Made by a program: the position numbers and the translations under genes. This document shows positions 68-55,744 of a DNA stretch of 64,000 nt, piece by piece. The notes below the pieces were generated by a model. That model was not told the origin of the DNA and ran no database searches. It saw nothing but the letters and a program-made list of their open reading frames with translations. Origin of the DNA: Eledone cirrhosa (taxonomy: Eukaryota); assembly GCA_964016885.1 (NCBI GenBank), contig OZ024741.1:364002001-364066000 (forward strand). The letters run 5' to 3'. How positions within the stretch are numbered: position 1 is the stretch's first letter; every line of letters starts with the position of its first letter.

Positions 68-145
68 AATTACCTAATTACCAGAGGTTTCCCGAATAAG
101 ACGAATACAAGAAACATCCTCATTCGTTCGTCGGACAAGGCAATT
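68..145 (-). ncRNA. Type I hammerhead ribozyme-like motif (variant core) at the end of an AT-rich PLE-like 3' region
   Basis: Minus strand: stem I AATTGCCT/AGGTAATT, core CCGACGA (U4C variant), stem II CGAATGAGG/TCTTATTCG, GAAAC-C-TCT-G-GTA (GUA cleavage triplet). The base of stem II is mismatched. Confidence 0.6.
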
Positions 146-801
146 TAAAACTGAAATATTTGAAAAATCTCAAGAAAGGCAAAAGTTTAACGGGCAAAAA
201 AAATATATAAATAAAAGTAATGCAAGATATATATAAAAATAAAATAAGGAAATATAGTTAGGGTATGTGTATAAATGTGTGTATATTCACTCACAAATGT
301 ACATATGTGTGTATGTACAAATACATGTGTATAGTGAAAAAATGTGTGCGTAAGTACATATATGAGGGCAAGCATATCAGTTATGTGTGACCACAAATAC
401 GTATATAATATATGTTGAAAAAGAAATTGTAAGATAATAGAGTTAACGTACATCCAGACTCAGGTACTAAGGACTGAAATATATACACATACAAGTATGA
501 AAGCACGCGCATAAACACACACACACGCGCGCAACCACATACATGCGAGTGATATATACAAAGAAGGGAGTGTATGAGTCAAAGCAATGTTAGGCTGAAG
601 GTCAATACATATATATAAAAAAGAAAAAAATGAAAAAATATGAGAATAAAAAAATAGAATCAAAGAGAAAATAAGAGGGAGGGGTTATCAATTATAAAGT
701 AACACTAGAAAAAATAGAAAACAAACAGGTTCGTACATACACATATATATATATATAAAAAAAAAATATATATATATATATATATATATAGATATATATA
801 T

Positions 802-1312
802 ATGTAAGTATGTATGTATACGTACATACATATATGTATACAGACGTACAGTAGCATGCATATATATATATATATATATATATATATATACATATATACA
901 TACATATATATATATATATATATACATATATACATATATACATACATATATATATATATATATATACATATATACATACAGGTACACATACATATATGCA
1001 TGCATCAGTTTAGCGGACGCTTATTATAACGCCGCTTTGTTCGTTTGTCAACACCGTATGGCATAAATTCAGGCTGTTCAGTTTGTTGACAAACGAACAA
1101 AGCGGCGTTATAATAAGCGTCCGCTAAACTGATGCGTGCATATATGTACGTGTACCTGTATGTATATATGTATATATATATATATATATATATATATATG
1201 CATGCTACTGTACGTCTGTATACATATATGTATGTACGTATACATACATACTTACATTTAAGTAAGTGCCATACTAAGAGTGAGAAATGAAATTTCGTTT
1301 TCATTTTTTTCA
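802..1312. repeat. Fold-back palindrome in (TA)n; same family as the 4040-4690 hammerhead unit
   Basis: Arms ~802-1053 and 1084-1257 are reverse complements (CATCAGTTTAGCGGACGC... / ...GCGTCCGCTAAACTGATG). The 30-nt loop matches the reverse complement of ~4218-4250. Confidence 0.85.
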
Positions 1313-1400
1313 ACTGATATATATATATATATATACATACACACATAGTAATATAGATATATATATATATATATATATATATATATATATATATACACAC

Positions 1401-51633: not shown

Positions 51634-52346
51634 TGTTTAACGAAGGGTAAAATGAGAATTTGTTGTTAGAATAATTAACATGATTGTTGGAGTTGTTAGA
51701 TGTAAAAACATGAATAATAAGAATAAATGATTTGGTTTATATATGGTTTACTTCACGTGAATCAATTAAAAAAGTACAATAAAACAGTTACCAAGAGTTG
51801 TTAATTTTGTTATTGTTGTTGATGTGAAAACAGCGAGCGAACAGATAATGTTGTTGTTGTTGGAAGTTGGAGTCCGTGGTAGTAATTGTGAGACCGTAGT
51901 TAGTAAGAGAGAGAGAGATATGGTTTGTATACCTCTGTTATGGTCTGTAGTAATTGTGAACCACCGTGGCCTGCAGACCGTTGAATCTTCCACATTTGTG
52001 TTCTGTAGTAGTGGGGCTCCAATCACTCTGTATTTCTGTAGACCTCTGGGGTCTGTAGTAACTGTGAATCTTTACATAGTTAGTTGCTAGCGTAATGCTC
52101 CGATCTTTCTTGTATTTCTGTAGACCACTAGGCTCTGTTGATAGTGGTGAATCTTTCACATAGCTTGTTCTGTAGTGGGGTGCTCCGATGTCTCTATATA
52201 AACGTGGAATGATAAAGGCTTTATATAACTGTCACTTCCTGCCTCCCACCTTGAGGGGATAGCCAACGCATCAACCTGTTCACACCAAAAGGGTGGTGAC
52301 CTAGAATTTGACCTTTAGGTGTCACCCAAGGTTCAAGGCGCGGATA
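51634..52346 (-). mobile_element. Probable solo LTR inserted in a degenerate minisatellite
   Basis: Minus strand reads TA(TG)TCCGCG...TTAAACA; GATGTA flanks both ends; TATATAAA box near 52220; internal tandem repeats 51900-52200. Confidence 0.55.
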
Positions 52347-55300
52347 GATGTATATGTCTATAGATATATGTATGTATAATATATCTGTAGATGTATGTGT
52401 TTATAGCATGTCTGTAGATATATGTATGCATAATATGTCTGAAGATATATGTAGTATGATGTATGTATGATGTCTGTAGATGTCAGCATCATAATTGTTT
52501 AACATCCATTTTCCTTGCTTGCATGGGTTAAACAGGTCATCGCATTATGAGACAAGTCGGGTGAGGAGACCTATATTTGGGCTTGGTTTCTATGGCTGGA
52601 TGCCCTTCCTAACACCAACCACATTACAATATGGGCAGGGTTCTTTTTATCATAGCACCAAATGTATATATAATATATTTGTAGATATATGTATAATACC
52701 TCTGTAGATGTACATATGTATGATATACTTGACAGTTCCTCCATCAGTTTTTACAATAAGCATTCAGTTCTTCAATCTACTAAGTGTCCAACTAGTGAAT
52801 TAATGTGTAAATGGTTGAGTACAAACATGCGTACTCCTAACATAATTCCTAAACTGAATCAGCCTGACATAATATGTGACAAAGCTGAACCTTTGAATTA
52901 TAGGTACAATCTATGCTGTAAAATCCACACTGTACAGTCCATGCTGTAAAGTGGTCATGTAGGCGACACAGCAAAAAGCACCCAGCACACACTGTAAAGT
53001 GATTGGCGTTAGGAAGGGCATCCAGCCATAGAAACCAAGCCAAAATCAGTTATGTGTGAGCAAATTATGGTCCCCTGATCTGATCTCTCATAAAAGGAGA
53101 GCCTGTCCTACCCATGCTAGTGTGGAAAATGGACGCTAAATGATGATGAATCTTTCCAAAAAGCTTTTATACAGTTTCTGTCTACATGATTTTGCTCACA
53201 TGGCTTGAAACTATGGTTAAGACACTTTCCCAAGAAGAGCAGTGAGATTGAACCTGGGACCTCATGATTTCAAAGTGAACTTCTCAACCACTCAGTCATG
53301 CCTCCTTAAATATAATATATAGAGGTATATAGACAAACGCACATAGCTGTATACATTGGAATTTGTATGTTTGAGACTAACAAAAGAATTGATATATCAT
53401 ATTATTAGCTTTAAACAAGGCAAGAGTTAACTTACCTACTATTAAGCTTTGCTACTTTCATAGCATTAACATTTGCTATGAGAATAATGGTAATTTCTCA
53501 CTGTTAGGATTCTATTTTGAAGCTTGAAGGAACTAACAACAGCTGGAATTTTTTGTCTTTTATTATTATTTTTTATTATTTCATGTTTCATTATTTTGCA
53601 AGCAAACTGTATCTCTAAGCTTATAAACAAATACACACTAACTCGTGATTATATATTGTGTGTAAAATAATATAAACAGTTATTTTTAGGTTGGAGGGTG
53701 GTCAGACATAAAGTTAAATTTAAATCTTTGGATTTCTGCCCAAAACTGCCTCTGGTTCAATGATTTATAACTGTTTTAAAATGTTTATATTTATCTAAAA
53801 AACTTCCATAATAATTTTATGAAAGAACCTTTGTTAAGTTATGCTCCAAACACTAGCTTAATAATGAGGAAGTTAGTTATATTACTAAATTCCTCCAAAT
53901 TCTTGATTATTTCCAAAATTATTTGAAAATTGTTAGCAATAGTTTTCATTAAAATATGGTGGTGAAAGGACTATGGGGTATAGGTATGGCTTGCAGTATT
54001 TATTCCTGCTTTTTGCATTCTGAATTCAATTCCTACAAATGTGAACGATACAGTTTCATCCTTCTAGGGCTAATAACATAAGGTATTGGTTAAGTTCTGG
54101 GGTGAACCCCTCCCAATTTCTCTCTCTCTCTCCCTCTCTCCCCACCTCTCTCCAGCAGTCCCCTCTTTGAAGATATGTGGGACATTATGTGGAGTACCAT
54201 TGCAATCTGGACATGTCTTGCTAATTTCTGGATCCATTTGACTGCCTTAGGTAATTAACATGGGATAAAAAAACTGTAGATCAGTTGTGACACTGTTTTC
54301 TGTGGAAAGTGGTGTTCTTTCTTATTAATGATAAGGTGGTCTGGTAGTGGACAGCCACTTAGTAGTATTCATGGCTGGTACCCTTGAATCTCATTTTCAT
54401 CCACTAAACAGTGATGTTTCATCTTTGCCATCTCTTGGTTTTGTATGAAAATATCTCTAGCACGCTGTCTCATGCCTGGAACATCACACACCTCTAATCT
54501 TTATATTTTCTTCTTCTCCTCTCATTAAATATACCTGACACCTAGCCTTTCTTCTAGCTTATGAAACATGAATCTTGTTTCACCTTATGATATTAAAATT
54601 AAAGAAATAGACTAGAGATGTAAGAAATAAAAATTAATTGAAAACTAATAGGTGGATAGTAATAAAATTTGTAGTTGATTTGAAATGACTTATAGGAATC
54701 AATTGTAAAATGTAGTGGTTTTAATTTTAGTTCAAATCCCAAGGTTTGTCAGTAGACATAAAGGTTTGACGTTGCTTTTCATACTTCCATGCTCATGAAG
54801 ACATGTGACCTGATGGTTAGGGTGTTGGATTTATGATCATAAGGTTGTCAGTTTGATTCCTGGACATACAAGTTGTCTTCCTCAACAAGATGCTTCATTT
54901 TAGGTTGTTTTTCAATATAGGACTAGGGTTAATATCAGTTTTAAAAAACCCTGTGAACCTTTTTACGAGGTTACATCTCATAGGAGGTCAGCTAAACCAG
55001 CATATGTGTAATGTTAGGAATCATTAGTTTTTAGTTTTCAGATACCTTATCTATATCATTTATATTTCTCAGTCACTCATTTTAATATTCATCTCATCTC
55101 TGTGAAATTTCATGTCTCTATACATATAAAACCTACTATAGTCTATTGTTTACATTTTCTTCCTATCCTATAAATATTTTTGAACATTAGGCTAATAGTA
55201 ACCTACATTCATAAAAAATAAGTATACTGGCTTTAATCATGGCTATGGGGTTAAGAAAGTCATTCTACAACTACATGATATAAGGTTTGATTCCACTGCA

Positions 55301-55744
55301 TGGCACGTGTGCTCTGCTATAGGCTCAGGTCTAACTAGAGATTTGTCAGGGTAGATTTGTTTGGTAGATAGAAACTATGCTGATGTCTGTCAGATGGTCT
55401 GTGTCTGTTCTTGGGTAATAGACCTTATATTATTGCCTAGTTTAATCCCACCATCTGGCTCTTGTGTACTTTAAGCAGAATCTACTCTCTTGCAAGCATT
55501 CGAGCCAGGTGTCAGGTCTGAGAATAACTTCTTCCTTTACTTCAGTCAGTTCCTAAGCCTCTGAAAAAAAGTTCCAGCAGGTAGCAGCGAGCAGAATACA
55601 CAATCTTGACAAGAAGCAAAACACCCCGAAACAATTGTCAATTGTCAATTGTTTTCTCTCAGCTACCGTTGGAATAAAAGGTTGACGTTGTCATCTACCA
55701 TGTGGTGTTTTATGAAGCTGTTTATTTGTAAACAAACCGAATAT

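Follow-up and report, generated by a model that had tools for sequence, protein, structure and literature searches.

What accounts for ten type I hammerhead ribozyme motifs within a single stretch of genomic DNA? The stretch in question (hereafter the window) comprises 64,000 nt of Eledone cirrhosa (OZ024741.1, positions 364,002,001-364,066,000; genome size 3.0 Gb), has a GC content of ~36%, and contains many (TA)n runs. An earlier inspection of the sequence (the original prediction) had proposed a high density of sequence-unrelated ribozymes from mostly small, non-autonomous families mobilized by the reverse transcriptase (RT) and GIY-YIG endonuclease (EN) of Penelope-like elements. Having followed up the motifs, which are named here by their position in the window, we consider a modified account very probable: six are the ends of coding Penelope-like elements, two are retrozymes, and all were likely inserted by Penelope RT-endonuclease proteins, together representing the ordinary debris of a Penelope-rich genome.

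All ten motifs are present at or within about 10 nt of their predicted positions. A strict hammerhead descriptor was run on the window and on 40 local dinucleotide shuffles and found 5 loci in the former versus 0.15 per shuffle; one strict-descriptor locus, at 14655, is a false match within a long interspersed nuclear element (LINE). Looser descriptors permitting one mismatch gave no excess over chance (2 versus 0.75 and 0 versus 0.08 in the shuffles). A second descriptor, which permits a U3-A8 pair, a stem II that is bulged or mismatched at its base, and extended loops on that stem, found 5 matches in the window versus a mean of 0.14 in 100 shuffles (maximum 1) and none in the reversed window; it recovers 5 of the 11 window motifs and misses 6, the eleventh being a decayed inverted twin of 38619 with a damaged core at 38735. 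The anticipated excess over dinucleotide shuffles is thus borne out by the strict and the second descriptor. As the latter was composed after the motifs had already been seen, an independent sample of 40 segments, each 10 kb long and placed at round coordinates of 17 contigs (400 kb in total), provides the fair test, and here 17 matches were found versus 0.33 in 15 shuffles and 2 in the reversed sequence. Rfam by itself overlooks most of the window motifs, since, among the 150 of 203 Rfam matches listed, RF00163 hits none of them except 14080 and 32976, whose 31.7 and 29.1 bits both lie under the gathering score of 34. The sub-threshold Rfam scores, the lack of excess with the loose descriptors, and the false positive at 14655 are what could be expected if the motifs were chance matches in AT-rich DNA, but this explanation is vanishingly improbable and is refuted by the excess in both window and sample and by the membership of all ten motifs in repeat families that keep the fold.

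The sampled rate of 42.5 motifs per Mb implies ~10^5 motifs genome-wide, with an interval of 0.7-2.0 x 10^5 that is too narrow because several sampled matches are paired arms of a single insertion. A stretch of 64 kb would be expected to hold 2.7 motifs, and the 5 observed do not clearly exceed that number (P = 0.14-0.18). As the motifs are real and occur at a near-average rate, the proposed high density belongs to the genome and not to this window. The association with (TA)n is upheld, with a (TA)6 or longer run within 250 nt of the core at 6/10 motifs (background 27%, P = 0.03), and AATAAA or ATTAAA follows the predicted cut site within 30 nt at 5/10 (background 5.6%).

Genome searches placed every motif in a multi-copy family, as predicted. 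The motifs are not all unrelated in sequence, as 14080 and 32976 share 88% identity over 103 nt and form one family, which makes nine families among the ten motifs; no other pair gave an alignment longer than a 23-nt patch. The searches returned 1270 candidates for 14080, 2396 for 4289, 1339 for 68, 764 for 41193, 2545 for 39565, 38 for 15921, 1618 for 38619, 629 for 55600, and 765 for 4749, and for each family 38-40 matches were scored and 20-30 loci kept. Exact patterns matched 2461 times for 14080/32976 (26-mer), 1513 times for 41193 (24-mer), and 95 times for the 38619 5' core, and the reversed patterns of these three families matched nowhere. Seven 41193-type cores spaced 2.2-2.9 kb apart (G000:C1:162169010-162181446) and six 38619-type cores spaced 140-165 kb apart (G000:C3:89513764-90257705) suggest tandem and segmental duplication.

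Judged by sequence comparison, motifs 68, 4749, 14080, 32976, 38619, and 41193 are pseudo-long terminal repeat (pLTR) ends of Penelope-like elements bearing an open reading frame (ORF), five of them of Hydra type, because the same pLTR sits on ORF-bearing copies elsewhere. The pLTR fragment with 14080 is 100% identical to both pLTRs of locus L031, in which a pLTR, an uninterrupted frame of 916 amino acids (aa), a spacer, and a second pLTR follow each other with a period of 4862 nt. The ORF end preceding 32976 is 81% identical at the aa level to residues 672-916 of L031, and its Pfam GIY-YIG match (E = 0.0019) lies under the cut-off. The element ending in 68 is 87% identical over 1036 nt to L253, where a frameshifted ORF lies between two pLTRs whose hammerheads are 3706 nt apart, and an ORF piece precedes the motif on its own strand at 8/25 loci of this family. 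In the 41193 family, the pLTR lies on both sides of a Hydra-type ORF in L303 and downstream of one in L305 (ORF piece of 709-714 aa, 52% identical to L031); as its 3' spacer measures 3.6-3.9 kb, a same-strand ORF was found within 1.5 kb at 0/55 loci. In the 38619 family, a Hydra-type EN lies upstream on the same strand at 4/20 loci and in L259 and L260, and no complete element was found among the loci examined, only partial ORFs. Partial ORFs are also all that was found in the 4749 family; the window element matches L262 with 73% identity (1832 nt) and L263 with 71% (1353 nt), with 41% aa identity to the L300 ORF, which matches RVT_1. The layout of an EN+ Penelope, a single RT and C-terminal GIY-YIG ORF between pLTRs, is uninterrupted in L031 and broken in L253 and L303. 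Two provisional judgments, that 4749 is not a hammerhead and that a core at 38719 is a piece of an unrelated hairpin, were reversed by family alignment.

The Hydra-type label follows from the ORFs. RW[KR], DKT, CxCX5C, CxxC, and CxH motifs, the last two replacing CCHH, are found in the 14080/32976, 68, and 41193 families, and frameshifted pieces of the 38619 family show YIG and the CxCX5C linker. The 4749 family does not fit these motifs and is nearer to a DKG/YLDD element that matches RVT_1. The main Penelope protein has 807 homologues at E <= 1e-20, the best with a GIY-YIG Pfam tag, and its named relatives include two molluscs and one bryozoan; its ORF gave no PDB match. The elements were found to insert into (TA)n and to carry a canonical hammerhead, as described for the Hydra clade.

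Motifs 4289 and 39565 are tandem, non-coding retrozymes of 320-430 nt. Their units, with one hammerhead each, measure 405-429 nt (GC 0.36-0.37) and 319-323 nt (GC 0.34-0.35), respectively, which falls in the 150-450 nt given for non-LTR retrozymes, and the longest Met-started ORFs comprise 55 and 40 aa. Direct tandem units occur at 7/25 loci for 4289, two of the seven overlapping, and at 5/25 for 39565. Eight direct monomers, two of them from overlapping loci, have predicted circle folds with z = -4.6 to -8.3 (30 shuffles each) and 56-67% of nucleotides paired; a ninth interval (z = -30.7) was excluded as it covers an inverted junction. Contigs from three runs, matched to 39500-39800, carried no information on expression or RNA ends. 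Both families have a long, bulged stem I, and their ends fall in (TA)n, where a target-site duplication is unreadable. Motif 55600 is probably a third retrozyme: it has the same long stem I, and some copies repeat downstream sequence upstream as permuted partial repeats. Its stem II reads GGAG/CTCC in most copies. An octamer, ATGCAAAT, followed by a similar AGGCT..CAGCCG stretch, stands upstream of the hammerhead at 18/25 loci of 4289, 13/20 of 55600, and 0/25 of 39565, and is possibly a promoter element common to the first two families. Motif 15921 lies in an old repeat with 39 matches, whose other copies are 73-84% identical and whose stems I and II are kept in the family alignment; a Penelope ORF piece within 1.5 kb upstream was found at 0/20 loci. 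Two tandem hammerheads in one locus were found at 0/20 loci for both 55600 and 15921.

The expectation of mostly small, non-autonomous families therefore applies to 4289 and 39565, and likely to 55600, but not to the six motifs that are ends of ORF-bearing elements. Likewise, most window copies do lack coding sequence, as had been claimed, except that those ending in 32976 and 4749 keep ORF remnants. That most motifs represent independent small families, each with its own short RNA, is unlikely. It is contradicted by the six pLTRs that are also found on ORF-bearing elements and by the scattered 5' ends of the 14080 family, where 1/30 copies start within 12 nt of the core and 18/30 beyond 200 nt. 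An argument in its favor comes from 41193: among 30 unbiased arms, 19 start within 9 nt of C3 (10 exactly at -7) and none between ~-10 and -275, as would a short RNA of fixed length, but the other 11 extend at least 275 nt into the element. An initial classification of 41193 as a stand-alone short family, based on 25/25 best matches starting at stem I, was query-biased; a second search and unbiased patterns found long copies and ORFs.

The insertion junctions link coding elements and retrozymes. In six families, the 3' ends fall into two clusters before (TA)n, mostly adjoining it. Counted in nt after the cut site, these lie at 51 and 153 for 14080, ~27 and 112 for 68, ~60 and 228 for 38619, and 70 and 207 for 41193; in unit coordinates, they lie at 142-143 and 168 for 39565 and at 223 and 274 for 4289. 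Inverted pairs combine one short and one long end: in 10/10 pairs of 14080, one arm ends at 48-53 and the other further on (8 of these at 152-154), the same combination holds in 8/8 simple pairs of 41193 (a four-arm locus was excluded), and both back-to-back pairs of the window conform. The inverted, 5'-truncated arm and the one-sided tail that characterize EN+ Penelope insertions were found. In the retrozymes, 5' ends are scattered around the unit, with copies of up to ~2.5 units, and show no clustering at the cut site (1/25 in each of 39565 and 4289); no poly(A) tail was found in 50 mapped retrozyme loci. As two fixed 3' ends before (TA)n are a Penelope footprint, they support the mobilization of retrozymes by Penelope RT and GIY-YIG, which remains the most likely route, in keeping with the original prediction. 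It is improbable, to about the same degree as the small-family explanation or slightly more so, that the retrozyme-type repeats were moved by another enzyme (for example, an RTE-like LINE) or by DNA duplication and merely gather in (TA)n. The window contains many pieces of such a LINE (RVT_1 E = 1.4e-22 at 1352-2311), and the retrozyme units gave no pLTR homology; against this, the two fixed 3' ends, the inverted arms ending at the other point, and the lack of poly(A) reproduce the footprint of the ORF-bearing Penelope families. At two loci, the retrozyme 5' end is fused without (TA)n to Penelope coding or 3' sequence (L050, 1038-1445, Hydra-type RT; L131, 1075-1447, another type). These joints are single cases and might have arisen when the RT switched between element mRNA and retrozyme RNA as template.

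In the mechanism that we propose, the GIY-YIG domain would cut AT-rich DNA, chiefly (TA)n. The RT would start 30-270 nt downstream of the ribozyme, at either of two fixed points, and copy the RNA toward its 5' end. Priming on both strands would yield a back-to-back pair with one short and one long end. Copying would generally halt early so that only the pLTR and hammerhead remain, which would explain the many ribozymes without coding sequence. Penelope proteins would also act in trans on retrozyme RNAs, presumably multimers or circles given that the copies are in tandem and their 5' ends scattered. The hammerheads are predicted to cleave slowly, mostly as dimers through their palindromic stem III, and copies that span the cut site suggest uncut or re-ligated RNA as a usual template.

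The 41193 family bears on this template. The frequency of stem I starts differs strongly from that in 14080 (19/30 versus 1/30, P = 8e-7), and starts within 12 nt of the core in 8/30 copies of 38619 and 1/30 of 14080 show that the pile-up is not general; six values of 94 nt in 14080 reflect the boundary of a subfamily and were not counted as ends. The window copy itself has its 5' end exactly at the stem I start, and copies starting there span the predicted cut site. Transcription that begins at stem I may be responsible, or else a strong stop of the RT once it has passed the large three-way junction. A cap-derived extra G is not established by the unbiased set: 5/10 junctions at -7 have a G, which in at least three of them is explicable by the neighboring arm or a repeat. 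A separate observation is a 41193-family pair (L102/L315-L316, G000:C1:23582203-23582293) whose 5' junction contains several repeats of the initial 12 nt of the ribozyme, suggestive of an RT that jumped back again and again at an RNA end. A more specific scenario, which we put forward tentatively and regard as rather doubtful, is that capped RNA of at least one Hydra-type family starts at base 1 of stem I and is reverse-transcribed uncut from two starts in the 5' leader, giving about a thousand pLTR-only copies; that the same two-start, two-strand reaction inserts non-homologous retrozyme RNAs; and that families fixed for U17 and a 10.1/11.1 mismatch owe their spread to a damped ribozyme, with which more of the template stays uncut.

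The cores (positions 3-9, G12 A13 A14 A15.1, U16.1, and H17, with a 3-8 pair) carry C3-G8 in seven of the ten motifs and U3-A8 in three. The division into intact and decayed cores that had been drawn does not hold. A textbook core (G10.1-C11.1, C17) occurs only in 14080; of the others called intact, 4289 and 41193 combine a C10.1/A11.1 mismatch with U17, and 32976 has U17. Conversely, 39565 was called decayed, and its U3-A8 core is undamaged and fixed in the family (25/25). The same label is correct for 55600 and 4749 insofar as the window copies are damaged, but their U3-A8 cores are family states (TTGACAA exactly in 13/20 and TTGAAAA in 17/20 loci). U3-A8 is thus a state of these three families and not decay, and it was also found in 10/17 independently sampled matches, including the pLTRs of a further Hydra-type element (L215, L236). 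A 10.1/11.1 mismatch is fixed in four families (C.A in 4289 and 41193, A.G in 68, U.U in 38619), and U17 is the majority in three: 41193 (27/27 scorable arms, 3/30 being unscorable), 4289 (24/25, with the core CTGATGA likewise in 24/25), and 14080/32976 (20/30). A17 occurs in 25/25 loci of family 68 and is frequent in older relatives of 4289 and 41193.

Cleavage at a GUU site is much slower. GUC and GUA sites cleave fastest (PMC3138052). It is less likely than not that most of the hammerheads no longer cleave and are structural or promoter-linked passengers of the pLTR. Such an explanation accords with the U17 majorities and fixed mismatches, with in vitro insertion that was unchanged by hammerhead mutants (PMC11167929), and with 8/9 retrozyme dimers that did not cleave (Li preprint, 10.64898/2026.07.22.740005). 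On the other hand, U17 still fits NUH, an axolotl hammerhead whose stem II has a U.U at its base cleaves as a dimer, and compensatory changes, among them the C3-G8/U3-A8 swap, preserve cores, stems, and palindromes. Across six distinct relatives of 39565, 94.6% of cells are paired and 9/22 pairs are changed on both sides; both partners vary in each of the four stem II pairs, and five relatives have U-A and one has C-G at 3-8. Helices are weak or damaged in the window copies of 4749, 15921, and 55600. The conserved folds with compensatory changes point to selection on a catalytic fold. Loss of cleavage is compatible with a Penelope origin of the motifs and differs from our reading only on activity.

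Several points weigh against this reading of the window. Pfam found no RT match for the L031 and L305 ORFs, the Hydra assignment draws on motifs and by-eye likeness to Hydra-1_Obim, and full elements of 3.7, 4.9, and ~6.9 kb (periods 3706, 4862, and ~6900 nt) exceed the "generally <3 kb" given for the clade; because of the unmatched RT and these lengths, we use the label Hydra-type and make no formal filing. Retrozyme units compared with seven Penelope elements showed homology only in short TA-rich patches, leaving descent from pLTRs unsupported. Most family loci are the best 20-30 BLAST hits of 38-40 and are biased toward the window copy. The first (TA)6 run in both retrozymes may be internal, their ends being placed by alignment, and the pairing structure of 39565 was drawn on the window copy, itself one of the aligned and related rows.

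Table 1. Hammerheads and the repeats that carry them in the window
Feature	Position	Strand	Details
5'-truncated Hydra-type Penelope-like element	1..1000	-	Family 68; 3' non-coding part and pLTR
Hammerhead 68	72-141	-	CCGACGA; A10.1/G11.1 mismatch; 36-nt stem-loop II; predicted cut after A at 79
Retrozyme insertion	4039..4691	-	~1.2 units of 405-429-nt tandem repeat (4039-4552, -) and inverted arm (4558-4691, +)
Hammerhead 4289	4289-4331	-	CTGATGA; C10.1/A11.1; stem III ACTAGT; U17 at 4295
Old decayed Penelope-like element	4709..7111	-	DKG/YLDD type, not Hydra-type; ORF remnants 5718-7111
Hammerhead 4749, decayed, in 3' pLTR	4748-4788	-	U3-A8 core TTGAAAA; A17 at 4754
pLTR-only fragment of young Hydra-type element	14066..14170	+	105 nt; between (TA)n/(CA)n runs
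Hammerhead 14080, textbook minimal	14079-14124	+	CTGATGA; G10.1-C11.1; ACATTGT; C17 at 14117
Old decayed hammerhead repeat	15868..16035	+
Hammerhead 15921	15921-15963	+	CTGATGA; additional G preceding stem II; damaged stem III
5'-truncated Hydra-type element, 14080 family	30097..33172	+	GIY-YIG ORF end 30097-30843, 3' spacer, pLTR; stops at (TA)n
Hammerhead 32976	32975-33020	+	U17 at 33013
Back-to-back pLTR pair of another Hydra-type element	38394..38894		Two inverted arms, inside (TA)n
Hammerhead 38619, left arm	38616-38728	-	CCGATGA; U.U at base of 79-nt stem-loop II; C17 at 38622; long 3' end
Right arm of 38619 pair	38726-38838	+	Decayed core CCAATGA; short 3' end
Retrozyme copy	39519..39776	+	0.8 of 319-323-nt tandem unit, inside (TA)n
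Hammerhead 39565	39563-39611	+	U3-A8 core TTGATAA; 12-nt palindromic stem III; C17 at 39605; long bulged stem I
pLTR-only copy of third Hydra-type element	41127..41427	-	41127-41341 (-) and inverted tail arm 41340-41427 (+); (TA)n flanks
Hammerhead 41193	41193-41341	-	CTGAAGA; C10.1/A11.1; 116-nt stem-loop II; U17 at 41200
Older repeat, probably retrozyme-type	55570..55752	+
Hammerhead 55600	55600-55645	+	U3-A8 core TTGACAA; C17 at 55639; stem II damaged

Besides the features in Table 1, the window contains further decayed 3' halves of hammerheads at 46843-46886 (+), 84% identical over 44 nt to the family of L245, and at ~22280-22380 (-). A dispersed repeat of ~200 nt occurs at 29316-29506, 30892-31097, 31892-32071, 43182-43400, 44538-44758, 50086-50274, and 55747-56181, and two of these copies interrupt the 3' spacer of the Penelope element that ends in 32976. 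A LINE at 1352-2652 (+), which we take to be RTE-like, has the RVT_1 match mentioned above and a PHD-finger match in the same frame, with pieces near 14265, 16462, 33954, and 57527. A Mariner/Mos1-type transposase remnant lies at 8438-8902 (+; Pfam HTH_48, E = 3.8e-08). A tRNA-Ser-like sequence at 35146-35217 (-; ARAGORN, and Rfam tRNA with 35.8 bits), within a hairpin at 35104-35264, is probably a tRNA-derived repeat. Long near-perfect hairpins with sub-threshold microRNA matches at 59824-60058, 10175-10324, and 39844-39969 may be back-to-back insertions without a hammerhead. A GC-rich 38-nt tandem repeat at 42673-42864 (5.1 copies at 90%) is unusual for an AT-rich window.

How do these elements relate to known systems? 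Type I hammerheads of the Penelope and retrozyme kind in many families were rightly recognized by the original prediction, whose interpretation as stated is already published biology: pLTR hammerheads, their families, U3-A8 cores, retrozymes, and the proposed dependence on Penelope are all in print. Minimal pLTR hammerheads have been described in many families, with U3-A8 pairs, opposite-strand pairs, and single motifs as truncated elements (Cervera and de la Pena 2014, PMC4209133). Compared with that description, Eledone shows the U3-A8 share of sampled matches given above, stem-loops II of 79-116 nt, 10.1/11.1 mismatches, and U17 in several families, and implies ~10^5 motifs versus ~2,000-9,000 per single genome there. 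The Hydra clade includes octopus Hydra-1_Obim, which is listed with a preference for (TA)n and a hammerhead that has U at the cut site (Craig 2021, PMC8557442); this was the only relevant report found in the literature on hammerheads and Penelope in octopus or cephalopods. The elements described here resemble that clade in their RWK-like, DKT, CxCX5C, CxxC, and CxH motifs, 3' hammerhead, (TA)n target, inverted 5' arms, and one-sided tail, but differ in their period of 3.7-6.9 kb, true pLTR-ORF-pLTR copies, tails of 85-170 versus 30-40 nt, and the presence of no fewer than four separate families within a single window.

Animal retrozymes have been defined, with Penelope-like elements named as their likely mobilizers (Cervera and de la Pena 2020, PMC7229834), and their dependence on such elements has been argued (Li, Clavereau and Pollet 2026, bioRxiv 10.64898/2026.07.22.740005); mussel retrozymes measure 350-390 nt and axolotl has 126,247 motifs (same two sources). 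The Eledone units share the low-GC, non-coding tandem organization at 320-430 nt, one type I hammerhead, and co-occurring Penelope-like elements. Unlike the retrozymes described there, they are mostly dispersed insertions of 1-2.5 units with inverted arms instead of long arrays, have U3-A8 or U17, and show no pLTR homology in our comparison; their junction-level Penelope footprints were not found described in the consulted parts of the two sources. We found no title or abstract on retrozyme insertion junctions. The Anolis Poseidon element PAc cuts both strands of AT-rich DNA, starts RT at two internal sites that define the tail, and uses mostly unprocessed RNA (Frangieh 2024, PMC11167929). Two RT starts that set the tail, cutting and extension of both strands, an AT-rich target, and unprocessed RNA as the main template are also suggested by the junctions in Eledone, in a different clade, with the starts in non-coding sequence before the ORF and further apart. 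In Drosophila, an internal promoter of the pLTR with initiator and downstream promoter elements (Inr/DPE) is supported (PMC2377424).

What this genome adds are the 41193 copies that start at the 5' edge of the ribozyme across the cut site and the U17 majority in three families. These touch on two open questions, namely the role of the hammerhead in the Penelope cycle and the enzyme that moves animal retrozymes. Young near-identical families, an uninterrupted ORF, mapped starts, and natural variants (C17/U17 and C3-G8/U3-A8) make both testable in vitro.

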